Shown: one piece after another, positions 2,429 to 48,987 of the stretch
How positions within the stretch are numbered: position 1 is the first letter of the stretch
Layout: each line of letters starts with the position of its first letter
Virus record (IMG/VR): IMGVR_UViG_3300031772_000043
Location: 1 to 58,395 of that record
Direction: 5' to 3' (one strand)
DNA: 58,395 bases
Origin: a virus
Taxonomy: Duplodnaviria > Caudoviricetes
Notes under the pieces: generated by a model
Databases searched by the model: none
Seen by the model: the letters and a program-made list of their open reading frames with translations, nothing else
What the model was told of the DNA's origin: nothing
Translations under genes and position numbers: made by a program

Positions 2429-2445
2429 GAACCCTGCCGATAGTA
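2429..2445 (+). promoter_or_regulatory. conserved 17-bp motif copy 1 (GAACCCTGCCGATAGTA), putative phage promoter
   Basis: One of six near-identical copies; followed by AGGAGG and ATG at 2464. Confidence 0.7.
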
Positions 2446-2463
2446 CAGGGAAAGGAGGTTCAA

Positions 2464-2712
2464 ATGTCGCAAGATCGCGTTTATGCACCGCATAGCTTTG
2501 AGCCTTGGCGTTTGAAGGACTTCGACTTCTGCAACGTGTGTTCGCTGCCCAGGCACAAACACGAGCAGATGTATGAGCCCAACGTAACAGCCACATTGTG
2601 TAATGAGCCTATTGAGGGCTTTGACGACACGGTTTGCGACAAACCAAAGAACCACAAAGAATATGACAATCCGTCGGAGCACACCTGTTCCGGAATCAGA
2701 GGCAACGCATGA
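2464..2712 (+). CDS. hypothetical Cys/His-rich protein
   Basis: AGGAGG RBS before ATG 2464; CxxC and H motifs. Confidence 0.65.
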   Translation: MSQDRVYAPHSFEPWRLKDFDFCNVCSLPRHKHEQMYEPNVTATLCNEPIEGFDDTVCDKPKNHKEYDNPSEHTCSGIRGNA

Positions 2713-3440
2713 CGATAGCTAAGTGTCCTCCGCACCGATTTGCACTTCGTCAGACAACAGGTCGCGAGACATGTATTGATTGTTTTGCGGAGGAGGAGGA
2801 GGAGGAAGACTACGGACCCTACGTAGCAGGCAAAGTTCAGGCAAACAGTGCCGACCGTGTAAGAAAAGCATATTCAGAACTGGGGGCAGCGGTTGAGGCC
2901 TGTGCCAGTGAACTGGAGCGCATGGGTTTTTCGTACAACGATTTATTGAGCCGTCAGGCTGCGCTGGTCGCTACTACACAGGTAGAGACTCGTGTGCGGA
3001 CTATTCGAGAGCTTGCACATGGTCTAGACTCAAGAGCAACCTACGCCGAAGACGGAACGCGGCGTACAAGTGTCCCTTTGCACTCTGTGCAAAGTCTAAC
3101 AGCTTTAGCGGATAGCGTGGAGAAGGGAACTGGGCGCTTGGGTTACAGTCCCGACTACATTAGGACCTTAGAAGCCGTTCTCGTGTCCATTCGGGGCTCA
3201 GGTGCGTGGGCAGCTATAGAGGCAACCGATTCAATCGGTCTTGGCTGTCAGGCAGATGGGCGTGCGGAGTTGCGTGAACACCTGGCTTCTTTGCCCGCAG
3301 ATCTAGAGATCCGAGTCAGAGCGAAGATGTTCAAGCTCGCAGCAGAAGCTTTGTTGTCAGCGCCCCCGGGTCCCGATACCAAAGAACATCATTACGCTTT
3401 CCTTTGTGCTCTCGCAGACAGGCTGGAGCAGAAAACCTGA
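2709..3440 (+). CDS. hypothetical protein
   Basis: 243 aa; ATGA overlap. Confidence 0.7.
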   Translation: MTIAKCPPHRFALRQTTGRETCIDCFAEEEEEEDYGPYVAGKVQANSADRVRKAYSELGAAVEACASELERMGFSYNDLLSRQAALVATTQVETRVRTIRELAHGLDSRATYAEDGTRRTSVPLHSVQSLTALADSVEKGTGRLGYSPDYIRTLEAVLVSIRGSGAWAAIEATDSIGLGCQADGRAELREHLASLPADLEIRVRAKMFKLAAEALLSAPPGPDTKEHHYAFLCALADRLEQKT

Positions 3441-3856
3441 TGTACTCCGAAGACGAATTGATTCAGCAGGTACGCGAGCTTGTGGCTATCGCTGTAGAAA
3501 CGGGAAGAGATCAGGAGCGCCTAAAGACCAAGTTCAACGTGGCCGCGTTCTTTGACAACAAAGCTGCCTGGTCCTCCGCTACATTCGGTCCTGGTGACCG
3601 CTATCAAGGGGTATGCAACCATATCCGAAAAGAGCTTCAAGAAATTGAATCAGACCCCTCCGATCTGACCGAATGGGTAGATGTTGTTCTGCTCGCCATG
3701 GATGGCGCGTGGAGGGCGGCGGGCGCAGACGGAGAGGCTTTCGTTAGGGCCCTCATCGCCAAAGACGAAAAGAACCGCAGCAGAACCTGGTCTGACTGGA
3801 GGACACTTGCTCCAGATGCTGTAAGCGAACATGTGCGAGAGGGAAAAGAGCGATGA
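3440..3856 (+). CDS. DUF550 / MazG-like all-alpha dNTP pyrophosphohydrolase
   Basis: WSSATFG...HIRKELQEI...DLTEWVDVVLLAMDGAWR matches the DUF550 pattern. Confidence 0.75.
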   Translation: MYSEDELIQQVRELVAIAVETGRDQERLKTKFNVAAFFDNKAAWSSATFGPGDRYQGVCNHIRKELQEIESDPSDLTEWVDVVLLAMDGAWRAAGADGEAFVRALIAKDEKNRSRTWSDWRTLAPDAVSEHVREGKER

Positions 3857-4316: not shown

Positions 4317-4328
4317 GGAAGAAAAGCT

Positions 4329-4595: not shown

Positions 4596-4601
4596 ACAAG
4601 T

Positions 4602-4835: not shown

Positions 4836-4838
4836 CGG

Positions 4839-5159: not shown

Positions 5160-5169
5160 AAAGCCCCCT

Positions 5170-7431: not shown

Positions 7432-7455
7432 ACCCTCACGGGTTATTTGCGTTTC

Positions 7456-7797
7456 ATGTATACGTACCTAGCTCGTTTGGTGAAGGTTGTAGATGGGGAT
7501 ACAATCGACATAGACATTTCGCTCGGATTCCGCATCACCATAATGCAGCGTTGCCGTCTTCGTGGGATAAACACACCTGAGACTCGTGGTGCTTCTAGAG
7601 AGGCAGGGCTGAAAGCTAGCGAGTTCACCAAAGCCTGGCTAGCCGGAGTAGAGCAGCTAACTATTCATTCGTTCAAACCATACGGTGACGACAAGTTTGG
7701 CCGCTTTCTAGTGCAGGTGTTTAAGACGCCTACCGAGCCCTCCTTGAACGATGCTCTTTTGGCTTCAGGCAATGCAGTACCGTTCATGGTGGATTGA
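7456..7797 (+). CDS. thermonuclease (SNase-like) family nuclease
   Basis: VVDGDT, RLRGINTPE and DKFGR motifs. Confidence 0.85.
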   Translation: MYTYLARLVKVVDGDTIDIDISLGFRITIMQRCRLRGINTPETRGASREAGLKASEFTKAWLAGVEQLTIHSFKPYGDDKFGRFLVQVFKTPTEPSLNDALLASGNAVPFMVD

Positions 7798-7812
7798 ACC
7801 CTGCTGATAGTA
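7796..7812 (+). promoter_or_regulatory. conserved 17-bp motif copy 2 (GAACCCTGCTGATAGTA)
   Basis: Overlaps the SNase stop codon; precedes the next gene cluster. Confidence 0.7.
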
Positions 7813-8000: not shown

Positions 8001-8008
8001 GCAAAGCT

Positions 8009-12715: not shown

Positions 12716-12732
12716 GAACCCTGCCGATAGTA
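12716..12732 (+). promoter_or_regulatory. conserved 17-bp motif copy 3 (GAACCCTGCCGATAGTA)
   Basis: Intergenic; GAGG RBS and ATG 12749 follow. Confidence 0.7.
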
Positions 12733-15772: not shown

Positions 15773-15866
15773 GTTCGTAGATAACCAAACTCAGACCTGT
15801 CTCCTTTTAGTTAGGGAGTCAAACCGGACTGGTTATTTGTACGTGTTAGACGCATCTTGGTTCTCC

Positions 15867-15883
15867 GAACCCTGCTGATAGTA
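15867..15883 (+). promoter_or_regulatory. conserved 17-bp motif copy 4 (GAACCCTGCTGATAGTA)
   Basis: In the divergent intergenic region before the 15965 cluster. Confidence 0.7.
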
Positions 15884-15964: not shown

Positions 15965-16351
15965 GTGAGCACGGATAGAAAGCAAGTCGAAAAGGAACTT
16001 CACCTCATCGACGACATTTGGTCCAAGACTCGACCTGGTAAACGCGTGTGTGGAGGAGACCGAGATGGAAATTCTTGTGTGTTCCCCGTAGAGGATATTC
16101 GATCTGTACTAGGTCGATTTGAGAGTCCGTCTGAGGCCGAAGCCTACGCTCTAAGTGCGGGGCATATCGAGCGGCTTGCGGAACTTGTAAAGAAACTGCT
16201 GGACGAGCGCGACGAAGCGCGACTAGCCCTTCATGAGATTTCTCAAGTTGCAGACCCGGCTTATGAAGCGTTCAACGAGCAAAAGCCGGTTGACATGGCA
16301 ACCGTATTGAGGACTACTCATAGATGGAGTCACTTCGTCCTAAGACCCTGA
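15965..16351 (+). CDS. hypothetical protein
   Basis: GGAGG RBS, GTG start. Confidence 0.65.
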   Translation: MSTDRKQVEKELHLIDDIWSKTRPGKRVCGGDRDGNSCVFPVEDIRSVLGRFESPSEAEAYALSAGHIERLAELVKKLLDERDEARLALHEISQVADPAYEAFNEQKPVDMATVLRTTHRWSHFVLRP

Positions 16352-20370: not shown

Positions 20371-21321
20371 GTGCGCCGACTTACGGAACTAGAATTTCTG
20401 GCAAAGCTAGAGAAAGCTAGGGACAATATTTGCCCTGAGGAGGCCTATGAAAACACTCGAACCAAAATGGGAGTCCGGTGTATTCGTTGCGGCCACCGAT
20501 GGAAAGCTGTCCCCTCCAGCTTGTTGCGCGGCGTGGGATGCCCGGAATGCGGAAAAGTAAAAGCAAGGGGCGTACCTAAGCATCCGCAGGCCGCCGAGCG
20601 TTTCGCTCAACGCCTTCTAGGCGGGACGGTAAACGTCCTGACCGAATATCGAGGCGCAATAATGCCAATCAGGGCTAAGTGCCAAGTGTGTGACCACGAA
20701 TGGACTACTACGCCGCTACGTCTTCAAAAGAATGGGTGCCTTCCTTGCAGCCGTAAAGCCCACGGTGTTAGCGCCCGAAAGAGTCCTCTAGACTTTGAGC
20801 AACAGGTAGTCGCTATTCATGGATCTCTGATCCGAATGTGTGGGACCTATACTACCGGCAAGGAACGCATCCAAACTGAGTGCACCAAATGTGGATATCA
20901 CTGGACTCCTGTAGCGGGACGATTAGTGCGGGCCGACGCCAGGGGCTGCCCAGGATGCAATGCATCCAAGGGTGAAAGACATATTAGGCAGCTTCTCACC
21001 CGTCACGACGTTCTGTTTACCCAAGAGCACACATTTCCAGACTTGGTCAGTCTCGATGGAGGTCGCTTGCGCTTTGACTTCGCGGTATGGACCGCTCCAA
21101 GTATTCTAAGTCACTTGATTGAGTACGACGGCGTTCACCACTTTCGTCCTCTGAAGCACAGAGGAGGTATGAAGCGCTTTCGTAAGCAACAACGAAATGA
21201 TAAACTAAAAGATGTCTATTGCTCGGATAAGGGCATCCCACTAGTGCGTATTCGCAGCCTAAAATTGAGTGACGTTAATATCGAGGAGGTCCAGTGTCCA
21301 TCACCAAACAAGTTCTTGTAA
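20371..21321 (+). mobile_element. free-standing homing-endonuclease-like gene (zinc-ribbon repeats plus PD-(D/E)xK/Vsr-like nuclease)
   Basis: Three CxxCxHxW...GCxxC repeats; LRFDF...IEYDGVHH...NDKLK..YC...IPLVRI C-terminus. Confidence 0.75.
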
Positions 21322-25774: not shown

Positions 25775-26248
25775 GTGATGAGGCTAGATAACCCCAACAC
25801 AAACCTCTATAATAGCATTGAAACTGTTGCTTTTACCGGCACCCAAAAAGGGATGACTGAGGCTCAGTGTCGGAAGATAAGGGAATTGCTTCAGAAAATG
25901 AAGCCAAGGGTGTTGATACATGGTGATTGTGTGGGCGCCGACGCTGTTGCGCACGAAATTGCCCAAGATCTCGGTATTGAGGTCCACATACGGCCAGGTA
26001 ACCTGAAAAACAAAAGAGCGTTCACTTCAGGTGCCAAACTTCTGGCCCCTCCTGAAAACCCGTTGGATAGGAATCCAAAGATGGTGGACGCGGCGCAGGC
26101 CCTGATAGCGTGTCCTTCGGGCAAAGAGCAGGAACTGAGGTCTGGAACCTGGGCCACCATTCGGTACGCCAAAAAAGTGGATACCTTACATTGGATAGTG
26201 TACCCTGACGGAGAAATGGCGGGTCCTTGGGGTTTCGAACCCTTCTGA
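25775..26248 (+). CDS. SLOG-superfamily (YspA/DprA-like) protein
   Basis: AFTGT, HGDCVGAD, RN..MV and SGTWATIRYA. Confidence 0.75.
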   Translation: MMRLDNPNTNLYNSIETVAFTGTQKGMTEAQCRKIRELLQKMKPRVLIHGDCVGADAVAHEIAQDLGIEVHIRPGNLKNKRAFTSGAKLLAPPENPLDRNPKMVDAAQALIACPSGKEQELRSGTWATIRYAKKVDTLHWIVYPDGEMAGPWGFEPF

Positions 26249-26253
26249 TAGTA
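26237..26253 (+). promoter_or_regulatory. conserved 17-bp motif copy 5 (GAACCCTTCTGATAGTA)
   Basis: Overlaps the SLOG stop codon; heads the replication gene block. Confidence 0.65.
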
Positions 26254-27807: not shown

Positions 27808-28249
27808 GAGGGAAAGTACCGCAACGATAGTCAAGTTTCAGCGTTTGAACCCAGATGCCGTCATTCCTGAGAAGGCATCTTTAGGCGCCGCAGGCTTCGA
27901 CCTTGTCTCTGTGGAAGACGCCACCATCAAACCCATGGATCGCGCCGTCATCAGCACCGGTATCGCAATGGAGGTTCCGCCTGGGTTCGAGGCGCAGGTG
28001 CGCCCCCGCAGTGGCCTAGCTGCCAAGTATGGGGTAACCGTGCTGAATTCTCCAGGCACCATCGATTCAGACTACAGGGGCGAGGTCAAGGTCATCCTGC
28101 AGAACTTCGGACCTACGTTTGTTGTCAAGAAGGGCGAACGAATTGCCCAAGTGGTAATTCAGCGCGTACCTTCCATCCAATTCGAGACCGTCGAAGAGCT
28201 TACCGATACAACCCGAGGTACTGGCGGTTTAGGCAGTACAGGACGATAA
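27800..28249 (+). CDS. dut: trimeric dUTPase
   Basis: AGFDL, RPRSGLA, GTIDSDYRGE, RIAQ and RGTGGLGSTG. Confidence 0.95.
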   Translation: MSKRESTATIVKFQRLNPDAVIPEKASLGAAGFDLVSVEDATIKPMDRAVISTGIAMEVPPGFEAQVRPRSGLAAKYGVTVLNSPGTIDSDYRGEVKVILQNFGPTFVVKKGERIAQVVIQRVPSIQFETVEELTDTTRGTGGLGSTGR

Positions 28250-30975
28250 TGGGCGACAGCCCAGAGAAGACGAAGCTCTGCGTTCTGAATAACGTTCTGT
28301 GGGTCCCCACCCAGTACGTAGATCAAGACGTAAAAGAAGAGTTTACTTACCGATTCGAAGAGATCGAATACCAACCCATGTTGGACCTCCCCCAGAAGTG
28401 CGCTAATTGCGAACTTTGGGGTAAAAAGTGGAGACCAGGTTCGATGACGTGTGCCCAGAAGGGATACACGCTAGAGGATATCTGCAAGAGCTTCAGCCAC
28501 AAGAAAATGCCGGTTTCCAAGGAAATCGTACTCAAGACGTACCGAGAGCGCCACGACGGATGGACTCAGTTTGCCCGCGGAGACCTGGGAAAAATTCGAA
28601 GGTGTTTCCGGGAACTTGGGATTGATGATCAACGAGTTGCGCCGGAATTGGGGTTTGACCTGACCTGTCACCGGGCGCTGTATGAGGAGCAACAGCAGGT
28701 AGCGGAGGCCTGGCTCAAGAAGGGCTACGGACTTATTCAGGCTCCGACGGCATGGGGGAAGTGTCTCGGACGCGGTACTCCTGTACTAATGTACGATGGC
28801 AGCACCAAGGCTGCCGAAGACGTCCAAAAGAACGACCTTCTGATGGGCCCAGACAGCCTGCCACGTCGAATTGTTTCCACGGTGCAAGGGAGAGAACCCA
28901 TGTACCGTGTGACGCCAAAAAAGGGTGATCCATACGTAGTTAACGAGTCACACATATTGTCTCTGAAACTGAGTAAATCCAAAGGTTCAGACAGTGTCGA
29001 CTTAGTAAACATCAGCGTAAAAGACTACCTGAAGAAAAACAAGTGGTTTAAGCACCGCGCTAAGGGCTGGAGAGCCGCTATAGATTTCCAGTCGGGCGCT
29101 CCACTGCACCCTGATCTTCCTCCTTACTTGTTGGGAATATGGCTAGGTGATGGAGCTTCAAAGTTACCGGCTGTCACCTCCGCAGACCCTGAAATTGTGG
29201 AGATGTTGCAAGAGTATGCGAGTACACGTGGTCTAAGTCTTCGTGTGGATGCATCGGGTGGTAGGTGTCCGACATATCACGTCACGACCAAGTCAGTAGG
29301 GCGGGCGTATCGAGCCAATGCCCTGGTGAACGCACTCAAGGACCTTGGACTGTGGGCCAACAAGCACATTCCTCACCAGTACAAGACAGCGTCTAGAAAT
29401 GATAGGCTACAGCTTCTGGCGGGGCTAATAGACTCTGACGGGCATTTGAAACTTGGTGGGGGTTACGATTTCATATCCAAAAATGAGTCGCTTGCTGACG
29501 CTTTGTGCTTCGTAGCTAGGTCGTTAGGCCTGGCTGCGTACAAACAGGAATGCCGTAAACGGTGTACTAACAACGGCGTGGAGGGAACCTACTATAGAGT
29601 GGGCCTGTCCGGAAACGTAGGTATCATACCGTGTCGAGTTTCCCGGAAGACGTCTGTTATCCCGAGAACTACTAAGAAAGACCCCCTTGTCGTGGGGATC
29701 AAAGTAGAACCTATTGGAGATGGTGACTATTTTGGTTTCGAAATAGAGGGACCTGACCGACTATTCCTTCTAGGTGACTTCACTGTCACTCACAACACTG
29801 TCGTGTGGGCGTGGTTAGTCGCACGCCTAGGCTATCGAGTGATTCTACTTGCTCAGGAAGTACGACATCTCATGGTCGGCTTCGAAGGACTATACGAACA
29901 CACGAATATCGCAGAGCTAGAGGAAGCCCACGGAGAACACCTGATCGGGGTCCTCAACAAAGACTGGTCTTGGGGCAAGGATCAGGATGGGACCCGAATA
30001 CGTAAGTTCGTGGACCGACCCGGCAAGTATTATCCGATTACGTTTGCCACCTTCCAATCATTGGCGTCCAAGCGCGGCGTGAAGATGCGGAAGAAGTTGA
30101 AGAATTACTTCGGACTGGTTTGGTGTGAAGAGTGTCACCATGAGTCCGCGCCTACCTTTCACGCTGCCACTAAGTCATTCAACGCCAAGTATCGTGGGGG
30201 TCAGACGGCTACCCCTTCGCGCAAGGACCAAACTCATGTTGCCATCTTCGATACCCTGGGCCCGGTTACAGCCCGTGGGCACAAGGAGCAACTAACTCCG
30301 ATCGTGAAATTTCACGCCACGAACATCCATGTTCCAGACAGCGTATTTCGTGGTCGATACATCATACCGATGCTGGTCAACTTCTTAGCCCGAAACGCCC
30401 ACTACCAGGATTGTCTCTACGAAGAGATCATGAAGGAATGCGAAGAGGGTCGAAAGATTCTGGTCGTCACCGAACGCCGAAACCAGGCGATGAGACTACG
30501 GCAGAAAATCAAACTCCAAGGCCATGGGTGTGAACTCATGATTGGCGGCCAGAAGCTCAAGGAACAGAACTGGTACGCGGAAGAACTTATGTCGGGAAGG
30601 CTGAGTGTCATCATAGGTACTCAGGTGATCAACGAGAACGTGAACATCCCGCCTCTTGACTCCATCCACCAGCCCTTCCCGAACTTTGGCAAAGAGCGAG
30701 AAGAGCAACGAGTGGGAAGAATTAGAAGACCTCTTTCTTCCTCAAACCTCGCCTACCTTCAAGACAACAACATCGTGTGGGAGAAGCCACAGCCTAGAGT
30801 ACACGTCTACACGTGGTATTCGGGGCACAATATGGCGGGCTCCGCAGTTGGGTTTCGAGAGAAACTCTACAAGAAGTGGGGGTTCACCTTTGACCAGCCG
30901 GTGGAAGAACTTCCAAAAAAGCGACGCGCCAAGACCATGAAGGACTGGCTAGAAGAGTTCAAGGGCGATGAGTAA
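28249..30975 (+). CDS. SF2 (UvsW/Rad25-like) helicase containing an intein
   Basis: APTAWGK/T Walker A, EECHH motif II, TATP motif III, QRVGRIRR motif VI. Confidence 0.85.
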   Translation: MGDSPEKTKLCVLNNVLWVPTQYVDQDVKEEFTYRFEEIEYQPMLDLPQKCANCELWGKKWRPGSMTCAQKGYTLEDICKSFSHKKMPVSKEIVLKTYRERHDGWTQFARGDLGKIRRCFRELGIDDQRVAPELGFDLTCHRALYEEQQQVAEAWLKKGYGLIQAPTAWGKCLGRGTPVLMYDGSTKAAEDVQKNDLLMGPDSLPRRIVSTVQGREPMYRVTPKKGDPYVVNESHILSLKLSKSKGSDSVDLVNISVKDYLKKNKWFKHRAKGWRAAIDFQSGAPLHPDLPPYLLGIWLGDGASKLPAVTSADPEIVEMLQEYASTRGLSLRVDASGGRCPTYHVTTKSVGRAYRANALVNALKDLGLWANKHIPHQYKTASRNDRLQLLAGLIDSDGHLKLGGGYDFISKNESLADALCFVARSLGLAAYKQECRKRCTNNGVEGTYYRVGLSGNVGIIPCRVSRKTSVIPRTTKKDPLVVGIKVEPIGDGDYFGFEIEGPDRLFLLGDFTVTHNTVVWAWLVARLGYRVILLAQEVRHLMVGFEGLYEHTNIAELEEAHGEHLIGVLNKDWSWGKDQDGTRIRKFVDRPGKYYPITFATFQSLASKRGVKMRKKLKNYFGLVWCEECHHESAPTFHAATKSFNAKYRGGQTATPSRKDQTHVAIFDTLGPVTARGHKEQLTPIVKFHATNIHVPDSVFRGRYIIPMLVNFLARNAHYQDCLYEEIMKECEEGRKILVVTERRNQAMRLRQKIKLQGHGCELMIGGQKLKEQNWYAEELMSGRLSVIIGTQVINENVNIPPLDSIHQPFPNFGKEREEQRVGRIRRPLSSSNLAYLQDNNIVWEKPQPRVHVYTWYSGHNMAGSAVGFREKLYKKWGFTFDQPVEELPKKRRAKTMKDWLEEFKGDE
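28762..29796 (+). mobile_element. intein with LAGLIDADG homing endonuclease (345 aa)
   Basis: Starts CLGRGTPVLMYDG, ends VTHN followed by Thr; internal LLGIWLGDG and LAGLIDSDG. Confidence 0.95.
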
Positions 30976-33672: not shown

Positions 33673-33891
33673 ATGCCGAAGGACTCACACGTTCAGATCA
33701 CTGGGACTATCAGTGACGTTCATCCTGGAGGGCAGTTCGCTGTTACTCTGGAGACAGGGATTAGTGTAACTGCCCGTCTCTGTGGGAAGATGCGCAAAAA
33801 CAGAATCCGGGTTATCTTGGGAGACACAGTGGAGGTTTCACTATCTCCATATGACCTAACCCACGGAATTGTAACATTTCGGCATAAGTAA
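33673..33891 (+). CDS. infA: translation initiation factor IF-1
   Basis: GKMRKNRIRVILGD.V.V.LSPYDLT.G.VTFR, 72 aa. Confidence 0.95.
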   Translation: MPKDSHVQITGTISDVHPGGQFAVTLETGISVTARLCGKMRKNRIRVILGDTVEVSLSPYDLTHGIVTFRHK

Positions 33892-37452: not shown

Positions 37453-37962
37453 ATGTCCATCTCCTGGGACGAGAATCAACTCCCCGCCCTAATCAGCTGG
37501 ATCGAGAGTCAACTTCCCCTACAGCAGGGAGAGTTGGCCGTCCTGTCCATGGACATTCCAGAGAATTGCTTTGCAGGTCAAGTTGACCTAGAGGAAAAAG
37601 AGTTCCAAGTTTTCACTAACATCAATAGCCCTATGACCGACACCACAGTGAATGTCGTCTTGGCTTACATTGTAACCATGGCTTTTGATAAGAACGGATG
37701 GGAACCAGCTCCGGCCTCCGAAGTTTTGTTTGACTGCCATCGCCAGGTGTGTCAGACTCTTTTGGAGTTCAACGAAGATTTCTCAAAGCACGTAGAAGAG
37801 TGCTGGGATATTCTTGAAGCTTGGCACACGACACACGCGAGCCCCGATGCGACACCTACGACAACGACAGCCCCAGCAACAGACTCAGAAAGTCTAGTTG
37901 AAGAGATGGGTGCGTCTTTGTTCAGGTTGAACCCTGCCGATAGTAAGGGTTACGTCAACTAG
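37453..37962 (+). CDS. hypothetical acidic protein
   Basis: GAGG RBS, 169 aa. Confidence 0.65.
   Translation: MSISWDENQLPALISWIESQLPLQQGELAVLSMDIPENCFAGQVDLEEKEFQVFTNINSPMTDTTVNVVLAYIVTMAFDKNGWEPAPASEVLFDCHRQVCQTLLEFNEDFSKHVEECWDILEAWHTTHASPDATPTTTTAPATDSESLVEEMGASLFRLNPADSKGYVN
37929..37945 (+). promoter_or_regulatory. conserved 17-bp motif copy 6 (GAACCCTGCCGATAGTA)
   Basis: Inside the 3' end of the upstream CDS, 40 nt before tRNA-Gln. Confidence 0.7.
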
Positions 37963-40232: not shown

Positions 40233-40793
40233 TTAGCTCTTAGTGCTCCCCTTGGAGGGAAACACACCAGCTTCTCTCAGGCGTCTTAGTGCCGAGGCGG
40301 CTCCTGTCTTAGACCACCTGTCGTAAAGCCTTACAATATCCTGAGGGGTCTTCAGATCGGTAAGTTCACGGACTTCGTCTAGTATGCGGACGTAGTCGTT
40401 GAATCCGTCTGACAGATTCAAATAGACGTGAGTCAATCCATCTGGAGACAAAGGGGCTGCGCTTTGGTAAGCCCGCTCTCCTAACTGGACGACGTAATGA
40501 CGCGTTATGCCCTTACGGCTCACGTGCTCTGCGAAGAACCCGGTCAGGAATAGCGCTGCGTCTCCTGCACGGCGCAGACGCATAAAGCGCTCGTGTGAAT
40601 CCTTGGATTCCAGAGCCTGTCCCAGTTGCAGAACAATGGGGGTTGAGTAATCTGCTGGCTGGTTTACCTGACGAATTAGCAAGTTCACCAGGTAAAACTC
40701 AGTCCACTGTTCTATTTTGAGGTGTAAGCGGCTAGAGGCTTCTGCTATTGCCTCGTAAAAGAAGAGTTGAAGGTCTTCGCTTTTGAATGCCAC
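40233..40793 (-). CDS. conserved hypothetical protein resembling a bacterial family
   Basis: YLVNLL...RRAGDAALFLTGFF...G.RAY...RLYDRWSKTG; family recalled, not searched. Confidence 0.65.
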   Translation of the reverse strand: MAFKSEDLQLFFYEAIAEASSRLHLKIEQWTEFYLVNLLIRQVNQPADYSTPIVLQLGQALESKDSHERFMRLRRAGDAALFLTGFFAEHVSRKGITRHYVVQLGERAYQSAAPLSPDGLTHVYLNLSDGFNDYVRILDEVRELTDLKTPQDIVRLYDRWSKTGAASALRRLREAGVFPSKGSTKS

Positions 40794-41060
40794 TTACCTG
40801 CGCTGATCCAGCACGGTAGCGTTGGCCATTGACGCCTTCCATGCCTTTTCGACTAACGTATTAACCTGAGTTAGGCCCTCTACCATCTCAGGGTCTTTCG
40901 CTACCTTCCTCAGCTTAGAAACTGCTAATGCAATTTGCATGAGTAGGCCGGAAGCAGGCCCACCCATCATCGCGTTATTGCCCGCAGCCCGCTCCTGGAC
41001 TTTCAGCTTCTTGAGGGTTCTAGCCGCTCGGAGTAGTCGTTTTTGTAGGTCTGAACGCAT
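40794..41060 (-). CDS. small protein with RLLRAA leader
   Basis: MRSDLQKRLLRAARTL; internal KLRKVA. Confidence 0.65.
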   Translation of the reverse strand: MRSDLQKRLLRAARTLKKLKVQERAAGNNAMMGGPASGLLMQIALAVSKLRKVAKDPEMVEGLTQVNTLVEKAWKASMANATVLDQRR

Positions 41061-41073
41061 TGTACTGCCTATC

Positions 41074-44000
41074 CTATATCCCACTCAGATCTATATCCAG
41101 ATCTTCGCTGTTGATTGCGTCCAACGCCGTTTGTACTCTAGGCATGATTGTCTCGTAGAGAGACAGCAGGTCCGGACGCTTCTTTTGTAGAAGAAGCTTG
41201 AAGGCTAGAGCCGAGGGCGAATTGTTCTTCGTGCAGAACTCGATGGCCTTCTCGTACAGGGCGTGTAGAGCAGCCTTGTCAGGCTTTGGACGTGGTGTTA
41301 CGGGCGTTGCAGGGGCGGAGACTGCCGGGGCCGCTGTCGGGGGCTTAGGCGCGTCTACGGTCTCCTCTACAAACGGGACCTCATCCAGAAGCCGCTGCTT
41401 CTCTTTCGGCGGCAGGGGGAGAGCCTCTATGACCGTCTTGAGTTCCTCTGGAGTATATGCGCGCAAGGACACTATCGCCCGGACTCGCTTAAGGCGACGT
41501 ATACTGTCATCCTTGTCCTGAGTCAGAAGACCTTTCAGATTCTCCAGGCGACTGGGCTTAGAAGGAGGAGCGGGCGGGGCCTCTTCAAGCGCCTTTTTCA
41601 GCGCGTTGATGGCGTCTGAAGCCTCGCCCTTTGTCCACGGCGGGGCCCCCAGGTCGGTTACCTTGGGGCGTCCCAGCTTCTTCAGCTCGGCTTCAAGTTC
41701 CTGTACCTTAGCCGTCTGCTTTTCAGTAGCCGGATCGCTACGCCACTCGCCCTTGGGACGTGCAGGTGCAGCAACCGGAGGCGCGATAGCACCCAGAGGG
41801 TCTTGTCCCGCCTGAACCTGTCTAAGATAATTGGCAAGTCCCTGTAGGTACTTGATAAAGCCCTGCTTAGCGGTGGAGGACAGATCCTTGGACTTGATTG
41901 CCTTAGCTACTTCGCTATAGGTCAACCCCTTCAGCCCTGTCTCAAGCTCTCCGTTGAGAGTGAGCAGTTCTTCGGGCGTCAGACCCGCCTGCCTTGTCAC
42001 GTAGTCTAGGATTTCTTCCGTGACCTGAATATTGCCCAATTCCTTTGGCAGTCGACCCCTGGGCTTCTGTTCTGAAGGTGCGGGAGCCACTGCGGGCGCA
42101 GGCGCAGCGACCGGTGCAGGCATCCGGAGAATTTTACCCAGTGCTAGAATAGACCCGTCTTTGGCCACAGGGACGAAAGCTAGGTCTTCTGCCTGGATAT
42201 CTTTCTTTACCTGCAATGAGATGTAGCCCGCATCCGCTGCCTGAAGAAGGGCATTCTTAGCGGCATCCGGAGACACTTTTCCTTCAAGACCCTGTACCAC
42301 GTCAGCAACGTTGAACCCGCTCTTGGTCTCATTTGCCTTCACTGCATCAAGGACCTGAACCACAACAGCTTGGTCAACCTTTTTTCGGATGGTCGGAGGA
42401 GGCCCCTTGGGCTTTTTCTCTTCCTTAGGCACGCTCTTTGGTTCGGCAGCCGTTGGTTCTGGCAACTGGATACCCGGGATATCCGCGTCCTGCAGACCAT
42501 TTTCGTGCATGTACTGAATCAGGTCATCAAACAGAACTGCTGCAGGTCCCTTCAACGGGGCCCTAACCTTCTGAAGTCCGCTCTTCTGCACTGTCCGCAA
42601 TAGCGACAGGGCGGTACTAGAATCCTCGGCGTCCAGTTCGAACTCCGTAGACATCATGTTCCAGATGTTCCGCTGCAGTCGGGCCTTGGCGGTATCGCGC
42701 TGCGCGGGTTCCTCTTCGTCGTCCGGAGTGACCTCGTCCGACGTAAGGAAATCCACCGCTTGCTGCAACTCAGGAGAGAACGTCTTTCCTCGTCCTCTTA
42801 GGGTGTCTGTAAGCTCTTCTTCCTCTTCTTCGGAGACGGAAGCGGGTTCCGGCATATCTGCCGCTAGCTCGTCTGCGTTGAAGTCGGGCTCGTTTTCTTC
42901 TACAGCCTTTAGATTTGGAGTTCCATCCTTGGCAAAGTAGGACTCACGACCCCCTAGAGGTGGAATAGATACTCCACGGAAATCTGGCAAATGATCTGCG
43001 TTTACGAGACCCTTCTCCAGGAAGAATTCCGCGATGATTTCAACCACATTTTGAAGGACGGTGTCTTGAGTCTTTGCGGATGCTTGCTCCAGCGAAATGC
43101 TTTTTAGAACGCGAACTGCGTCCGCAAACATGTTCTTCTGGTCGTCATCCAGCTCGTACTCCTTTGCCATCTCATCAAAGATCGTACTACGTAGTTCTTT
43201 ACGCTCCGCCTCTTCTGGAACCGGAGGCTTGGCCTCTAGAATTTCCTGCAGCGATGGAACGGCTTCCACCGGGGCTTCTTTCGCTTGCGCCGGATGGCTG
43301 AATTCAATCCCAGTCAAAGAACTGAAGTCGGGGTGCCCAGGAACACCAGAATCGAATTCTGCCCTGTTCTTGCCCAGGTGTACGAGAATCTTCTTTACGA
43401 GAGGCGTGTATGCGGGACGCTTATCCAGTAGGGCCTGAAAGATAGAGGCCGCAGTTCTGCCCTCTTCCATGTGAAGCTGAACGCTGACCATGATCTTGTA
43501 GGCAGTCTCTGCCTCGGACCTATTCAATCCCAGGGCCTTGACCATTACCTCGAAACTAGGAGTTCGCTCACCCGCTGCTGGCGAAATTTCTTCCTTCTGT
43601 TTCTCTGTGGCTGGCTTGATTTCATCCTGCTGCGTCGGAGAGGCGGGGGGAGCGCCTTCGCCGAACACCTTGTCGAGCCCGTAATTGTCTCGCATGTTCG
43701 CGAGACCCTTAGTCCTGTTCAGCCGATTCAGATAGTTCTTCATCTGCTGGAAGAGGTAGGTGAGGCTGTAGGGCTTTGCGTTCTTCTTATCCAGGGCAGA
43801 GAACTCTTCACCCATGGCGTCCAAGTCCTTACCGCTTTCGGCAAGGTCAGACATGCGTACAAGCATGTCTAGAACACGCTGTTCCGTGGCGGATACGGGC
43901 TCAATGCCGCCTTCAGTCCCCGCCTCCTCCTGCATCTGCTCTTGCAGAGAGCGGATGAACGGAGTCATCTGCTGTTCGAGAGGCTTTGTGTTGTCGAACT

Positions 44001-47000
44001 CTTTGGTTGTCGGAAACTTATGTGACCCATCGTAGAGGGACACGAGATTCCACTTGCCGTTTTCGGTCTTCAGATCGGAGTGCAACGAAAGGAAGAACGC
44101 CAAGCGCTTTGCCAGACTGAGAGCGGACGAGGCGTCTTCGCTCTTAGACGCCTTCAGTCCCTTCAGGATCTCGGGCATGGTCTTGCCACGGAGCATGACA
44201 CGAATGATATCGTGAAGGGTTTTGGCAGCTTCTTTGTTTCCCAAAGAAGGTTGAGCGTTTAGAAGGGACTCGACCGCCGAATCGTTGCTCGACAGATCCA
44301 GAGTCTTCTTCAGAATCTCTACCGGTTTGACGATAGAAACTCGATTCATATTTGTCAGGTCCCAGACTTCTGGAGATACCTTGATGTCCTCTCCATTGTC
44401 GATCAGGAACTCAGCAATAGACCGAATGACCTCGTTCTGGTCGGGAAGCGTCTGAGTCTCCGAGAAACCCGGCTTGAAGTCATGGATACTTTTACCCGCA
44501 GCAAAGTGCTTTCTTAGCGCCGACAGTAAGAGACCGAAGTTTTCAACGCGCTTCTGCCAGGCCTTCTTGGACTCTTCGGGATCCAGATGCAGCGAAACTG
44601 ACTGAAGCTCTTCAGCAAGCGTGCGCTCAGTATTTGTGGACAGCTCTGTTCCTTGGGGCTTGAATCGTACCTTGTCCCTCATATCCGCAATTTCGTCTGC
44701 GGACAAATCGGAAGTAACCTTATCGGCCTTCCCGCTGGGTGGTTTGATTCTGGTACTGTCGGGTTTCGACTCGATCGGTGCAGGTTCTGCCTTGGGCTTA
44801 GGAGCGAACTTTTCCGGAGCAGGCTGGTAAGGCTTGCGCGTGTCCTTTTCAACTCCTGGTCCCCACTCCACGCTCTCTTCTCCGGGCTTAAGAGAGCGGG
44901 GCGGCGAGTACCCGGGTCCTTTGACGTCGTCCTTACTCGGCAGTTCGAACATGTTTTCGACTGCGTAGCTGCCATCCCCACGAACCAAGTCGTCTCGATC
45001 CTGAAGGAAATTTCTTACGTTTTGGAGCAGACCCAACTCCTTGTTGGAGTTGTGATTCTTTAGGTGCTGTTCTAGCTTTTGCTGAAGAGGCTCAATCTTA
45101 GATTTGAGTTCTTCGCGCTTGGTGTCAACCGCGTCCTCTTGCTTGCGCAGAAGCTCCGTGAACTGTTGCTGCTGCTTGCGGATTTCCTCGATCTTTTGCT
45201 TTAGCTGCCGAAGGCCTTTGCGCACTTCCGCTTCAGCTTGGCCAACGATCTTTTCTCTCAAAGATCTCAGAGAGTCACGAGCTTCTTTGGACTCGGCCTC
45301 CAGGTCGGCGTAAGCCTCGTCAAGGTCTGCTCCCTTAGCGTCCTTCAAATACGCGTAGTTCTGAAGCTTCTCTTCTTTCCAGATGGCGTCAGCGCGCTCA
45401 GCAGGATCTTCAATCGCATCCACGTCTTCGGTATCGAAGACGTCAGAGATAGAACCCGACTTGATTGCAGCTAGCAACTCTCCGAGAAGCTTAGTCTCCT
45501 TCAGCTTCAGGGCCAGCTCTTGCGCACTTTCAGGTCCCGCCTGAGAAATAGCCTGGTCTCTTAGCTCTTCGCGGGCTTGTAGTGCGTCTTTACCGCTCTT
45601 CTGCAGTGTTTGAATCTGGGCCTTGGTGTTGGAGAGCGACTCTTTTAGTGCGTCCAATTCTGCGCGCAGACCGACCGATTTCTCGTCCAGGAGCTTGACG
45701 CCCTTTTCTGCTACGCGGTCTACATCCTTCTGCCTCTGATTGACGAGATCGTGAATTGAGCCTCCGGACTTGGCTGTGGATTCCAACTCCGTCATCAAGG
45801 CTTTGAGGAGTTCAGGATCTGCTTTGGGGAAACTCTTCTGTATCTGCTGGAAGAGAGGCACCTTAGGAGGTTCGACTCTAGGCTTCTTAGGCGTGAGAGC
45901 TTCGTTTCTCTCCATCGCACTAAGTTCGTCCCTAAAAGACGACTTCCCCACATGTTTTGTGTTGTACGCGACAAAGTCAGGGTACTTAGACTCGTAGAAG
46001 CTCTTGCGCTTCTCCAGGTCTGCATCAAACGCCGTCTCGAACTTCTTTAGGGCTCGCTCGTAGACTTTACGTATTACTGCCATAGCCTCTGGGGCAATTT
46101 GTCCATCTTCATCCACTTCAACGCCGAACTCGTCGGCTGCAATTTCCTGTAGACGTGCCCCGAGTGAAGACGCAGGGCGTTGACCTTCCGGAAGAATGTC
46201 GTGACTCTTATCCTCGTCGTCCTGGTCTCTACGCAGGTTTCCGGGGATGGCCCACATCCATCGCAGAATGTTTTCCTCGTCTTGAGGGAACTTAGACCTA
46301 TTAGCTCCCAGCAGACCGTTAAGGACGTGTTGAAACCCTGCTGCGTTTTCTTCCGACGCCTGATTTAGGTAGGATAGGAACTTGTCTTGAGCAAGGCCCT
46401 TTTCTCCCTTGCCTAGAAGCACCGCACTAAAGGGGTTTAGCATCCGACTCAGACCCTTGTCTGTTTCGGCCTTTTCCTTCAAAATTTCGACTAGGGTGTT
46501 TTGGGCCTTTTCCTGCTTGACCTTCAGAGCATTCATTTGGCTCTTGTATACTTTTGGGTCTTCCTTGCTGTAAGAGAAGGGGGGTCGAGCGGCGATCTCC
46601 TGGATAGAAAGACGCTTGCCCTCGGCGCCCACACCCATAATTCCTTCCAGAATGGTGCGCTCTTCTTCGTTCAGTCTGGGGTCATCCTCTACGGTTAGAA
46701 CTTCTCCCACCACGTCCAAGAGCTTGTCAATGTTTTCCTGGGCCAGGGCCTGCTCGGCGATAGACTCTGGATCCGCCCCTTCTTGGGCTGCCAGATCCAT
46801 AGGAGACAGGGCCTCTTCACCCTCCTCCGAGTCGGAGCCCGGAGCCGACGGGCTCACAAATCTCTTAGACCGAATTGTCTGGGTATAGCGAACCGTGACC
46901 GTGTCTCCTCCATTTTGAGGAGAGAACTCCAGGGTTCCTCCGAAAGGGTTAGCTCTATATTGGTTTTTCCCTACAACGCTCTGGCTTTCCAGTCCTGGTG

Positions 47001-48987
47001 CTTCGATTAGAAATGTCTTGTCGAGATTTTCCCTACTAAACCAGATGTTTCCAGAAGAAGTCGCAAAAAGAAATGAATTGGGATCCTTGGCGACTTTTGC
47101 TTTCGTTTCGACACTCCACTTGCCTTCAACCCTGTTTAGCTTGACGCCTGTTTCTGGATCCGTAACTGAGATTTGAGCGGTGGGGTGTGCCTTTTTGAGG
47201 GGGATCAAGACGTGTTTGCTTTTGTTCTCGACTTGGCCCTCTTTGTTTTTAGGGAGTCTCGTCTTGAACGCGATACCGCGGGCTGACGTAAAGTCATGTC
47301 CTGCTGAGTCTTGCACTTTTAGGTCTTCAAGTCTGAACCCTGTTACACGTTCTCCTCCTGAGACCAGCTCAACGAGACCTCCGTCTTCAGGGATTGTGAT
47401 GCTACTGACTCCCGCCCTTGAGACGTTTTCTACCTGCTGTTCTCTTTTGTACTTATCAAAGACGCTCTTAAGAGCGTTTGTCACGCGTCGATACACGGTG
47501 GGAGCCGCGAACACCCGAAAATCCTTGGGGTCAGGTGTCTCTTGCTTATTCCTTTTGTCGCGGTCGAACTCCAGAATGGCTTGTCGAAATGCATCAAGCG
47601 CCACAGTCTGTAGGTCTGCAATTCCAACACCCGCTTTTTCGAACACATCACGGACAGCCCGGAATGGTACAGGCTTCCCGGAGAAGTACGAAGCTCCGTC
47701 AAGAATCCATTTGTTCAATAGTCCCGTGTAGTACTTAGAAAAGTCTACAATTTCTCGGTCTAGTTCGTTGGCCCCCTGGCGGACCTTTTTGATGTACTGA
47801 AGAGTAGGCCGATCTAGACTTCGGCCCCCTGCTTCTCCAAACTCAGGAAAATCTTCGTCTTGTGCCTCCGACTGCATTTCGTAGACACGTTCAGAAATCA
47901 AGCTAGCCAGCGGATAAAGCCGCCCCAGTTTAGGGGCTAACTCAGCTTCTACGAAGTCCCGAGCCAAGCTCCTGTTGTCGGGGCTGTCGTCAGCTTCTCT
48001 CTTGGCCAGAAGGTGCTCCAACTTCATAAAGTCACTAGCATCTGGGAGATTAGAGGAATCCGACTTGCTCTCTTCGAGTTCAGCAACTTCGTCCTCGATT
48101 AGAGGAACGATAGTCTCCGATACGAACGCGGGATTTGGGTGGTCCAAAATCGCTGTCCAGAGATTTTGTGCTCGCGCCTTTAGCCCCTCTACGGCCTGAT
48201 ACTCTGCCTTTGGATCTTTTTCCAGGGTAAGTTTCTTCGTATTCTTTCCAGGAATGAAGTACTCGACACGATAAGTGTTTCCGCTGGCAGAAGCGTCTCC
48301 AAAGTGCAGGAAGCCATCAGCGTAGCTGTATGCAACTTCGCCCGGCCCAGGCAGATTCGTGGGCTTTTCGTTCTTTAGGCTGGTGAGCTTTGTTCGAAGC
48401 TCTTTCCCTGTCTTAGAGTTGGTGACCTTCAACCCCTGCGTCAGATCAACACCCTTCTCCAATTTAGCACGGAGCGAGTTGTTGACGGAAACCTCTTTTA
48501 CGAGGGGCTTCCACTTGAACCAGGCTTCGTTCAAGTGCCAGAGACTTTCCTTGCTTTCCATAGGACGCTTAGGTGCGGCCTTGGGGCTTTCCTCGTCCCC
48601 GTCCTCGTCGTCCTCACCTTCTGCTTCGGATTCTTCATCCTCGTCATCCGGAGGGGCCTCCAGCCACAGGTAGTCGATCTTGACGCGCCGCCCTACGTCT
48701 TCTGGCGAGAAGAAGACTGTGTTCTCCAAGACGAAAAAGTGTGACTTGCCAAAGGTCTGGTCCTCGGACCGGGCAAACTCTTCATGAGTCTTTAGCTCAG
48801 AGATATCCAAGGAGTCAGGCAGAACGTTTGGGTTCTGCAGCTGCACCTCGCCGCCTTCGGGGATGACAACCTTTTCTGTCTCTTTTTGCGGAGCGCTTAA
48901 CGACTCAGTCGCCAGCTTTGTGAAGTCTGGATACTGCTGAGTGTATCGGGTCACTCGAACAATTCGATTGGCAATTTTGCGGGGCAT
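41074..48987 (-). CDS. giant 2637-aa multidomain protein with sigma70-like regions, beta-repeat modules and long coiled coil
   Basis: Uninterrupted ORF; region-2-like and two region-4-like segments recognised by eye. Confidence 0.75.
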   Translation of the reverse strand: MPRKIANRIVRVTRYTQQYPDFTKLATESLSAPQKETEKVVIPEGGEVQLQNPNVLPDSLDISELKTHEEFARSEDQTFGKSHFFVLENTVFFSPEDVGRRVKIDYLWLEAPPDDEDEESEAEGEDDEDGDEESPKAAPKRPMESKESLWHLNEAWFKWKPLVKEVSVNNSLRAKLEKGVDLTQGLKVTNSKTGKELRTKLTSLKNEKPTNLPGPGEVAYSYADGFLHFGDASASGNTYRVEYFIPGKNTKKLTLEKDPKAEYQAVEGLKARAQNLWTAILDHPNPAFVSETIVPLIEDEVAELEESKSDSSNLPDASDFMKLEHLLAKREADDSPDNRSLARDFVEAELAPKLGRLYPLASLISERVYEMQSEAQDEDFPEFGEAGGRSLDRPTLQYIKKVRQGANELDREIVDFSKYYTGLLNKWILDGASYFSGKPVPFRAVRDVFEKAGVGIADLQTVALDAFRQAILEFDRDKRNKQETPDPKDFRVFAAPTVYRRVTNALKSVFDKYKREQQVENVSRAGVSSITIPEDGGLVELVSGGERVTGFRLEDLKVQDSAGHDFTSARGIAFKTRLPKNKEGQVENKSKHVLIPLKKAHPTAQISVTDPETGVKLNRVEGKWSVETKAKVAKDPNSFLFATSSGNIWFSRENLDKTFLIEAPGLESQSVVGKNQYRANPFGGTLEFSPQNGGDTVTVRYTQTIRSKRFVSPSAPGSDSEEGEEALSPMDLAAQEGADPESIAEQALAQENIDKLLDVVGEVLTVEDDPRLNEEERTILEGIMGVGAEGKRLSIQEIAARPPFSYSKEDPKVYKSQMNALKVKQEKAQNTLVEILKEKAETDKGLSRMLNPFSAVLLGKGEKGLAQDKFLSYLNQASEENAAGFQHVLNGLLGANRSKFPQDEENILRWMWAIPGNLRRDQDDEDKSHDILPEGQRPASSLGARLQEIAADEFGVEVDEDGQIAPEAMAVIRKVYERALKKFETAFDADLEKRKSFYESKYPDFVAYNTKHVGKSSFRDELSAMERNEALTPKKPRVEPPKVPLFQQIQKSFPKADPELLKALMTELESTAKSGGSIHDLVNQRQKDVDRVAEKGVKLLDEKSVGLRAELDALKESLSNTKAQIQTLQKSGKDALQAREELRDQAISQAGPESAQELALKLKETKLLGELLAAIKSGSISDVFDTEDVDAIEDPAERADAIWKEEKLQNYAYLKDAKGADLDEAYADLEAESKEARDSLRSLREKIVGQAEAEVRKGLRQLKQKIEEIRKQQQQFTELLRKQEDAVDTKREELKSKIEPLQQKLEQHLKNHNSNKELGLLQNVRNFLQDRDDLVRGDGSYAVENMFELPSKDDVKGPGYSPPRSLKPGEESVEWGPGVEKDTRKPYQPAPEKFAPKPKAEPAPIESKPDSTRIKPPSGKADKVTSDLSADEIADMRDKVRFKPQGTELSTNTERTLAEELQSVSLHLDPEESKKAWQKRVENFGLLLSALRKHFAAGKSIHDFKPGFSETQTLPDQNEVIRSIAEFLIDNGEDIKVSPEVWDLTNMNRVSIVKPVEILKKTLDLSSNDSAVESLLNAQPSLGNKEAAKTLHDIIRVMLRGKTMPEILKGLKASKSEDASSALSLAKRLAFFLSLHSDLKTENGKWNLVSLYDGSHKFPTTKEFDNTKPLEQQMTPFIRSLQEQMQEEAGTEGGIEPVSATEQRVLDMLVRMSDLAESGKDLDAMGEEFSALDKKNAKPYSLTYLFQQMKNYLNRLNRTKGLANMRDNYGLDKVFGEGAPPASPTQQDEIKPATEKQKEEISPAAGERTPSFEVMVKALGLNRSEAETAYKIMVSVQLHMEEGRTAASIFQALLDKRPAYTPLVKKILVHLGKNRAEFDSGVPGHPDFSSLTGIEFSHPAQAKEAPVEAVPSLQEILEAKPPVPEEAERKELRSTIFDEMAKEYELDDDQKNMFADAVRVLKSISLEQASAKTQDTVLQNVVEIIAEFFLEKGLVNADHLPDFRGVSIPPLGGRESYFAKDGTPNLKAVEENEPDFNADELAADMPEPASVSEEEEEELTDTLRGRGKTFSPELQQAVDFLTSDEVTPDDEEEPAQRDTAKARLQRNIWNMMSTEFELDAEDSSTALSLLRTVQKSGLQKVRAPLKGPAAVLFDDLIQYMHENGLQDADIPGIQLPEPTAAEPKSVPKEEKKPKGPPPTIRKKVDQAVVVQVLDAVKANETKSGFNVADVVQGLEGKVSPDAAKNALLQAADAGYISLQVKKDIQAEDLAFVPVAKDGSILALGKILRMPAPVAAPAPAVAPAPSEQKPRGRLPKELGNIQVTEEILDYVTRQAGLTPEELLTLNGELETGLKGLTYSEVAKAIKSKDLSSTAKQGFIKYLQGLANYLRQVQAGQDPLGAIAPPVAAPARPKGEWRSDPATEKQTAKVQELEAELKKLGRPKVTDLGAPPWTKGEASDAINALKKALEEAPPAPPSKPSRLENLKGLLTQDKDDSIRRLKRVRAIVSLRAYTPEELKTVIEALPLPPKEKQRLLDEVPFVEETVDAPKPPTAAPAVSAPATPVTPRPKPDKAALHALYEKAIEFCTKNNSPSALAFKLLLQKKRPDLLSLYETIMPRVQTALDAINSEDLDIDLSGI

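Follow-up and report, generated by a model that had tools for sequence, protein, structure and literature searches.

A predicted sigma-like module in a giant head-module protein and two compact promoter-like motifs in a clade of T4-like jumbo phages

Phages obtain their first transcripts from host promoters, by injecting a polymerase (N4, phiKZ) or by injecting an enzyme that modifies the host RNA polymerase (RNAP), as T4 Alt does. Phage sigma factors such as T4 gp55, SPO1 gp28 and phiEco32 gp36 redirect the host core enzyme to compact promoters, some of which have no −35 element, and in the SPO1 and phiEco32 cascades the phage sigma factor is made after infection. Here we analyse a 58,395-bp viral record (IMGVR_UViG_3300031772_000043; the window is this whole stretch of DNA), in which a 17-nt promoter-like motif (class I) recurs just upstream of plus-strand genes and a giant minus-strand protein of 2637 amino acids (aa) contains a sigma-like module in its predicted structure. 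Class I is most likely read by host core RNAP together with an ordinary sigma factor of the phage, a reading to which we give a probability of about 0.4. If the module in the giant were its reader instead, a fourth strategy would join these three, in which nothing but a module for promoter specificity is injected. Even if that model fails, a sigma-like module invisible at the sequence level, inside a giant head-module protein, joins AR9 gp226 and phiKZ gp68.

These two proteins are comparable to the module of the giant in that they have a sigma2-like fold whose sequence similarity to sigma factors is vanishing, and they also have sigma-finger and sigma4-helix elements (PMC9209446, in the part of the text that deals with them). 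They differ in being ∼460–530 aa long, in serving the phage's own multisubunit non-virion RNAP and in not being virion components, whereas the present module is part of a head-module protein of 2637 aa, and no RNAP was detected for this phage. Among group 3/4 sigma factors, sigma-28 (FliA) is the best structural match of the giant. The giant is unlike it in matching no Pfam sigma hidden Markov model (HMM), in having a beta-sandwich in the place of domain 3 and in being ∼10 times larger; class I is unlike sigma-28 promoters in that a −35 partner at the normal distance is lacking. The 3′ half of class I, GCCGATAG, resembles GCCGATAA, which we take to be the long −10 element of FliA-type promoters.

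The virion RNAPs of N4 and of phiKZ and AR9 are giant virion proteins, or sets of them, ejected with the DNA to transcribe early genes from phage-specific promoters, but no polymerase domain was found in the giant described here and its packaging is only proposed. T4 gp55, SPO1 gp28 and phiEco32 gp36 are small, soluble and made after infection, and none lies within a virion protein; the ordinary sigma factor of the clade fits their pattern. Packaging and delivery with the DNA, as proposed for the giant, are features of T4 Alt and of the polyvalent proteins, the latter being large, multidomain, encoded near head genes and thought to be injected to jump-start infection (PMC5512222, where it characterizes them). 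None of their catalogued domains was found in the giant, however, and the word ‘sigma’ is absent from the text of that paper. A full-text literature search gave no report of a virion-packaged sigma module; the sigma-like module predicted here within a giant head-module protein is new.

Compact promoter-like motifs in the window and its relatives

Class I is the 17-nt sequence GAACCCTGCYGATAGTA. At up to three mismatches it has six matches in the window, all on the plus strand, where 0.14 are expected by chance and none of 100 shuffled sequences reached six, which bears out the non-canonical promoter-like motif that a preliminary description of this DNA had placed in front of early gene clusters. 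Each copy lies just 5′ of a plus-strand gene start or of the tRNA-Gln gene (Table 1), and the flanks of the aligned copies show no additional conservation.

Relatives that carry the giant were collected from viral contigs, where a profile search gave three records, and from metagenomes, a scan of which added two. In G001 (392,328 bp, rated 100% complete and syntenic with the window), class I occurs 57 times at up to two mismatches, always on the strand opposite the giant, with no copy on the other strand and none for a reversed-pattern control; with two positions freed there are 68 sites, still on a single strand. The logo of the 57 sites is one compact block, T-GAACCC-tgcc-GATA-n-TA, and no conserved element was found upstream of them. 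A Shine–Dalgarno (SD) sequence and a start codon follow within 60 nt at 51 of the 68 sites in G001 and at 38 of 54 in G002, the commonest spacing from the motif being ∼6 nt to the SD and, in G001, ∼18 nt to the start. G002 (423,825 bp, complete, with terminal repeats) has no copy of the sequence found in the window and G001 and carries another version, AAAGTCCGnCGATAnTA, at 54 sites on one strand only (control, 0). A third version, CAACCCTGGCCATAnTA, occurs in G008 (388,485 bp, complete) at 46 sites on one strand and nine on the other (control, 0), and a single window-type site lies in the flank of L032, whose giant is 37% identical. All three versions have the skeleton nAAnnCnGnCnATAnTA in common. 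Judged from these sequences, class I is spread over the whole genome and lies exclusively or very predominantly on one strand, with an architecture that is the same throughout the clade and some positions that are lineage-specific. Over-represented, strand-specific, located upstream of starts and kept in relatives, it behaves as expected of a phage-specific promoter; it is a real, phage-specific, promoter-like element, from which we infer promoter function.

A second motif, CTGTAAA (class II), is identical in all genomes examined. It occurs 31 times on the transcribed strand and four times on the other in G001 (shuffles, 14.9 ± 2.7 per strand), 49 and four times in G002 (9.3 ± 1.8 per strand) and 37 and 13 times in G008; the four and one copies in the window (2.5 ± 0.9 per strand) are not above chance alone. 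At 23–29% of sites the start codon of an open reading frame (ORF) of at least 50 aa lies 7–11 nt after the motif, compared with 4–6% of random positions, and the distance to an ATG is often 8–10 nt, a spacing that suggests leaderless transcripts. CTGTAAA heads the head module of G001, and the aligned region of G002 is conserved but reads CTGTAAC. The motif resembles TATAAATA, presumably the late promoter of T4, and may be the target of the ordinary sigma factor. Two compact promoter classes are thereby defined for an uncultured clade of 390–420 kb phages. A third short motif, GGTTATCT, stands just upstream of ORFs, several of which are on the minority strand; in G002, eight of its nine occurrences are at most 70 nt upstream of an ORF start, and it may represent another promoter class.

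A predicted sigma-like module in the giant protein

The giant ORF of the preliminary description is confirmed (P0001, Table 1), and a word-based search gave 12 homologues of 2430–2813 aa with 40–54% identity. The protein has no cysteine and a net charge of −83, and combines a long coiled-coil-like stretch with many helical domains separated by linkers. An exhaustive phmmer search with aa 400–1050 against 1.84 billion representatives returned 16 proteins at E ≤ 0.001, the query included, all of which belong to the giant family and none of which is a sigma factor; neither megablast nor tblastn matched the giant to any of 50,697 records of isolated phages, and aa 1400–2637 had no usable match in the protein atlas. 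By these searches the family is small and occurs in no phages other than this jumbo-phage clade. One homologue bears the precomputed label PF27067. Metatranscriptome X1 (contigs) contained 11 short pieces of a relative, 90–99% alike and without 5′-end information, which are no evidence of expression or habitat.

The setting of the giant gene was read from G001, where its counterpart (P0005, 2813 aa) is the penultimate ORF of a plus-strand block. That block contains, in order, the large terminase (phrog_17415), the portal (phrog_16240), a virion structural protein and the major head protein (phrog_2522), followed by a dozen ORFs of no known function whose order and size match the minus-strand ORFs of the window; tail and baseplate genes are separate, at 200–240 kb on the opposite strand. 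These assignments come from a PHROG scan of 180–345 kb that took in 67 of 146 ORFs of at least 110 aa, with small and tile-border-spanning ORFs left out. Because of this synteny, the ‘late block’ in which the giant had been placed can be specified as the tail end of a head module, although the window's own minus-strand ORFs (40.2–58.3 kb) have no Pfam or PHROG family match, and a late, head-module gene is supported. Neither class I nor class II was found inside the minus-strand block. The same description had called the giant ‘leader-tagged’, and this part was not confirmed: its N-terminus is conserved within the family, yet no other ORF of the window shares it. A search for the prohead protease PF03420, which would cleave such a leader, gave no match, but the control was also silent. 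Residues 9–120 of the giant are weakly similar (30% identity over 118 aa, E 0.047) to residues 349–452 of a 549-aa ORF of the minus-strand block, and the beta-rich N-terminal part of the one and the internal part of the other may be a shared domain.

Sigma-like domains at about aa 420–1000, as had been proposed, are found in predicted structures and by no sequence method. For the giant and its 12 homologues, the Pfam sigma families (Sigma70_r2, r4 and r4_2) gave no match; the giant matched no PHROG, a profile of its family retrieved no sigma factor from all PDB sequences, and six-frame searches of the window for sigma region 4 returned nothing. With hhalign, comparisons of the giant profile with the sigma factor of G001 and with a sigma-family profile, and comparisons made sub-domain by sub-domain, gave probabilities of 0.2–5%, which are not significant, and the best stretch (E 0.008, probability 5%, 18 columns), also not significant, falls on sigma region 4.1.

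We therefore turn to two AlphaFold models, one of aa 400–1050 from a 13-sequence alignment (model 1; mean predicted local distance difference test score, pLDDT, 74) and one of aa 330–525 only from 22 sequences, leaving out P0017 (a 443-aa fragment) and P0024 (model 2; mean pLDDT 76). They were compared by VIA-align with 48,161 representative PDB chains. For model 2, ranks 1–17 (Z 6.4–8.1) are all sigma entries or the sigma2-like chain of AR9 gp226, bar one engineered scaffold at rank 8, whose matched residues bear the same numbers as those of the sigma-2 entry 3ugo; unrelated chains begin at rank 18, with Z 5.9. The best match is sigma-28 (6pmj_F, Z 8.1, root-mean-square deviation (rmsd) 2.6 Å over 85 residues), and the top ranks also include pro-sigma-K, AR9 gp226, sigma-B, the N-terminal domain of SigE, SigI6, a WhiG complex, sigma-70 (rmsd 2.0 Å) and SigA-2. 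The match to gp226 is within the top three and covers its residues 188–268, the part termed sigma2-like by its authors (PMC9209446, in the passage on that domain). For model 1, at least 22 of 50 rows are sigma-factor chains or sigma-containing complexes, judged from titles and chain ranges. Model residues ∼6–121 match sigma domain 2 chains (Z 5.3–6.7), residues 122–306 match phage neck, tail-tube and baseplate domains (Z up to 7.7), and for residues 332–453 sigma-4 chains make up 12 of 13 rows (Z 5.2–6.9). With Foldseek, neither model had a PDB match at E ≤ 0.001; its non-significant ranks for model 2 have N-terminal-domain chains of sigma-E at 2, 3, 6 and 8.

From the models, a sigma2-like fold in the giant is well supported for a prediction, and a sigma4-like fold C-terminal of it, hence in the correct order, is moderately supported; a second helix-turn-helix (HTH) further along is a weak candidate (Table 1). 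In an alignment made by eye, the tryptophan pair of region 2.3 in the ordinary sigma factor corresponds to P-T in the giant. Co-folding of the sigma2-like aa 400–524 with residues 240–340 of the Escherichia coli beta′ subunit scored 0.00, a run made without controls that is evidence neither way. In the G001 giant, the loop that joins the first helices of the sigma2-like domain is enlarged by a tandem basic insertion, in which a unit of the type KKAREKKKGRAS is repeated; the window protein is without it.

Candidate readers of the class I motif

That no RNAP is encoded in the window, as the preliminary description had it, holds within the reach of Pfam and PHROGs. Beyond the window, six-frame searches of G001–G004 with PF00562 (beta subunit) gave no match, and no RNAP PHROG was found among 130 large ORFs of G001 (67 from the scan above and 63 from a second one, which took in 63 of 70 ORFs of at least 280 aa outside 180–306 kb, the other seven spanning tile borders). 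A T7-type polymerase, suggested by the contiguous motif, was also considered; PF00940 had no match in six-frame searches of G001–G004, a search in which the control genomes were also silent and which is thus unvalidated. G001 has a T4-like set of genes (rIIA/B, UvsX, a gp32-like single-stranded DNA-binding protein (SSB), clamp and clamp loader, topoisomerase II and SbcCD), and in this it agrees with the ‘group 2’ jumbo phages of the literature, in which RNAP is lacking but sigma factors are encoded (PMC7824862, in its account of that group).

The rest of the genome, as represented by the relatives, thus agrees with the absence of a polymerase but not with the absence of another sigma factor: a protein of the ordinary sigma-70 family is present in all three complete relatives. 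In G001 and G002 it is ∼410–450 aa long, scores above the Pfam cut-off for Sigma70_r2 and matches phrog_351 (‘RNA polymerase sigma factor’), and its gene adjoins that of the gp32-like SSB; no ordinary sigma gene was found in the window. A search for close homologues of this sigma gave 33, of which some lie on 265–424 kb contigs, and 21 of 36 hits were used for the alignment of the family. Close members occur in nine viral records. The giant is also present in four of these, including all three rated complete, and the five sigma-bearing records without it are fragments of 17–62% completeness. The N-terminal extension of this sigma is long, and its C-terminus comes soon after a region-4.1-like stretch; with no region-4 HMM match, it probably reads no −35 element. 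No further ORF with sigma region 4 above the cut-off was found, and several small HTH ORFs are sub-threshold. The giant, the ordinary sigma and a version of the motif occur together in all three complete genomes. The expected co-occurrence of giant and motif is therefore there but does not discriminate: because all three are present in every complete genome, it cannot separate the giant from the ordinary sigma.

In the preferred explanation, where promoter function, temporal class, the pairing of protein with motif and the packaging of the giant are what we infer, the phage would be of a type without an RNAP of its own, whose sigma-type proteins re-programme the host core enzyme. Class I would be its main early/middle promoter, one uninterrupted block that lacks a −35 partner and stands ∼6 nt before the SD of the first gene of each cluster, and would be read by the ordinary sigma, encoded outside the window and synthesised after infection. 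The module of the giant (highly diverged sigma2, beta-sandwich and sigma4) would be a device for binding the RNAP core, in a separate or accessory role. The skeleton common to the three versions of class I is in line with a conserved reader, and an ordinary sigma without a region-4 HMM match fits a promoter lacking a −35 element.

Several observations weigh against this explanation. Class I differs among G001, G002 and G008 at positions that are fixed within each genome, while regions 2.1–3.0 of the ordinary sigma are near-invariant in the same three genomes (overall identity falls to ∼48%), and with a near-invariant sigma core and a varying class I it is the invariant CTGTAAA that fits the ordinary sigma better. 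The giant's sigma-like module is left without a defined job. Directly upstream of the sigma operon, where the region is coding, neither a class I site nor a recognisable host-type promoter was found. Nor do the three complete genomes show any enrichment or clustering of sigma-70-consensus promoters (16 sites compared with 17–37 in shuffles; 5 with 7–19; 12 with 7–18); one or two weak host promoters would slip through such a scan. Because host-type promoters are not enriched, the first transcription of the ordinary sigma gene is unexplained.

The sigma-like segments of the giant are 54–62% identical between the window and G001, which have the same version of class I, and 23–41% identical between lineages with different versions. 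A pairing of the ordinary sigma with class II and of the giant with class I is compatible with these patterns, which are not proof of it. It can tentatively be proposed that the giant, synthesised late from the head-module operon, enters the virion and leaves it together with the DNA, and that its module, possibly after proteolysis, binds host core RNAP and directs it to class I, the ordinary sigma serving the CTGTAAA class, head module included, so that the two would form a two-sigma cascade. Such a role would agree with the rank 1–17 matches of the sigma2 fold among 48,161 chains, with the first unrelated chain at rank 18, and with the sigma4-like segment that follows in proper order; AR9 gp226 illustrates that sequence-invisible sigma-like proteins exist (PMC9209446, as far as it describes that protein). 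It would also agree with a gene placed after terminase, portal and major head protein in a module that CTGTAAA heads in G001, with a beta domain resembling those of virion proteins, with the lack of enriched host-type promoters, with the presence of the giant in all three complete genomes of the clade, and with segments that diverge alongside the versions of class I while the core of the ordinary sigma is near-constant. Against it stand the lack of sigma homology at the sequence level by any method and the Pro-Thr in place of the region 2.3 tryptophan pair in the by-eye alignment. No leader is shared, and presence in the virion is presumed from gene context and the beta domain. Transcription from ∼50–70 promoters, replication and tRNA genes included, would depend on a few injected copies of a 290-kDa protein, an awkward fit; the divergence of the segments tracks phylogeny and is not specific; and there is no precedent. 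The link from an injected giant to class I, which the preliminary description had drawn, stays tentative for the same reasons. In its widest form, in which the clade carries its first sigma in the virion, the giant's module fires class I and the ordinary sigma then runs CTGTAAA, the proposal is doubtful; the CTGTAAA promoters, late and partly leaderless, would then re-express the giant for the next round.

It is unlikely that class I is read otherwise, by host sigma assisted by a small adaptor or activator of phage origin, as with T4 MotA/AsiA, or by an unrecognised phage factor or polymerase, in which case the module of the giant would bind RNAP for host shut-off by sigma competition or for anchoring at the entering genome end. 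Room for such a reader is left by the many ORFs of these genomes without a family match (most of them), by the several small HTH ORFs with sub-threshold region-4 matches, and by the seven G001 ORFs of at least 280 aa outside 180–306 kb and other tile-border ORFs (among them those of 1687, 826 and 612 aa) outside the PHROG scan; with its lineage-specific 5′ half and conserved 3′ half, class I is also reminiscent of a −10-like element preceded by an activator box. However, a contiguous 17-nt block repeated almost unchanged at dozens of sites is what a dedicated sigma factor or polymerase would typically use, rather than host sigma with an activator, the 3′ half of class I mismatches the canonical −10 hexamer at key positions, and the whole-genome six-frame searches had no RNAP family match. 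Finally, that the sigma resemblance arose by chance, as a property of small bundles of helices in a model from a shallow alignment, and that the giant has nothing to do with transcription and is a structural or fibrous component of the virion, as the moderate Z (5–8, under the tool's caution line for helical bundles), the non-significant Foldseek result, the alignments of only 13–22 sequences and the coiled-coil-like stretch with its many linker-separated helical domains would allow, is improbable, because 16 of the 17 top chains are sigma or AR9 gp226 and the 17th is a scaffold on the 3ugo-equivalent residues, two distinct sigma domains are matched in the right order, two independent models agree, and even the best hhalign stretch, non-significant as it is, falls on sigma region 4.1.

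Coming back to the preferred reading by the ordinary sigma, it and the giant's module are two candidate factors for which class I and class II provide defined templates, and the transcription programme of the clade is now directly testable.

Features of the window

With a CheckV completeness of ∼15%, the window represents part of the genome of a T4-like jumbo phage. By Pfam and PHROG matches, most of its plus strand is occupied by genes for nucleotide metabolism and replication, and three tRNA genes lie on the same strand. Coordinates of these and of the features discussed above are collected in Table 1.

Table 1. Positions of motifs, genes and predicted domains (window coordinates unless another record is named)
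Feature	Position	Strand	Remarks
Class I copy	2429..2445	+	AGGAGG 8 nt downstream, then ATG 2464
Class I copy	7796..7812	+	5′ of DUF4326 ORF, start 7865
Class I copy	12716..12732	+	ATG 12749, 17 nt further on
Class I copy	15867..15883	+	5′ of ORF at 15965 and AAA ATPase cluster
Class I copy	26237..26253	+	One mismatch; heads flap endonuclease (FEN)/dUTPase/helicase/DnaB block; ATG 26294
Class I copy	37929..37945	+	tRNA-Gln (37986) 41 nt later; tRNA cluster
Class II CTGTAAA	27493..27499	+	ATG 27508, 8 nt later
Class II CTGTAAA, other copies	1605, 10909, 14957	+	
Class II CTGTAAA	24608–24614	−	Before minus-strand SbcD-like ORF
Third motif GGTTATCT	15779–15786	−	
Third motif GGTTATCT	25786–25793	−	
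Third motif GGTTATCT	33810–33817	+	
Third motif GGTTATCT, G001	237968, 306662, 321037		
Metabolism and replication genes	∼2.4–40 kb	+	dATP/dGTP pyrophosphohydrolase, DUF4326, AAA ATPase, DNA methylase, FEN, dUTPase, intein-bearing helicase, DnaB, exonucleases
HNH/homing-endonuclease-like ORF	20371–21321	+	phrog_559
Helicase ORF	28249–30975	+	908 aa
Minus-strand block	40233..58332	−	Densely packed ORFs; no family match; syntenic with 3′ end of G001 head module
Giant ORF P0001	41074..48987	−	2637 aa; clade-restricted family
Predicted sigma-domain-2-like helical domain	47428..47775	−	aa ∼405–520; models 1 and 2
Predicted beta-sandwich	46870..47427	−	aa ∼521–706, between the sigma-like parts; resembles phage neck/tail-tube/baseplate domains, Z up to 7.7, plus weak rows
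Predicted sigma-domain-4-like (region 3.2/4) helical segment	46432..46797	−	aa ∼731–852; model 1
Second HTH-like segment, weak	45976..46389	−	aa ∼867–1004; single row 1xsv_B, Z 5.4
ORF of 549 aa	55460–57109	−	Internal part resembles N-terminal part of giant
Ordinary sigma, L010	1069–2421	−	= G001 246993–248345; also L011, L061

Two of the plus-strand ORFs carry signs of mobile elements. The helicase ORF contains an intein, with Hint and LAGLIDADG homing-endonuclease domains, between ResIII and Helicase_C, and its G001 counterpart of 561 aa is apparently intein-free. The HNH/homing-endonuclease-like ORF has a treble-clef zinc finger, is set among early genes and is probably a mobile insertion. 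Among the relatives, G001 has 25 copies of the tRNA T-arm 10-mer GGTTCGAATC and G002 has 18, counts that suggest large tRNA sets in both genomes.

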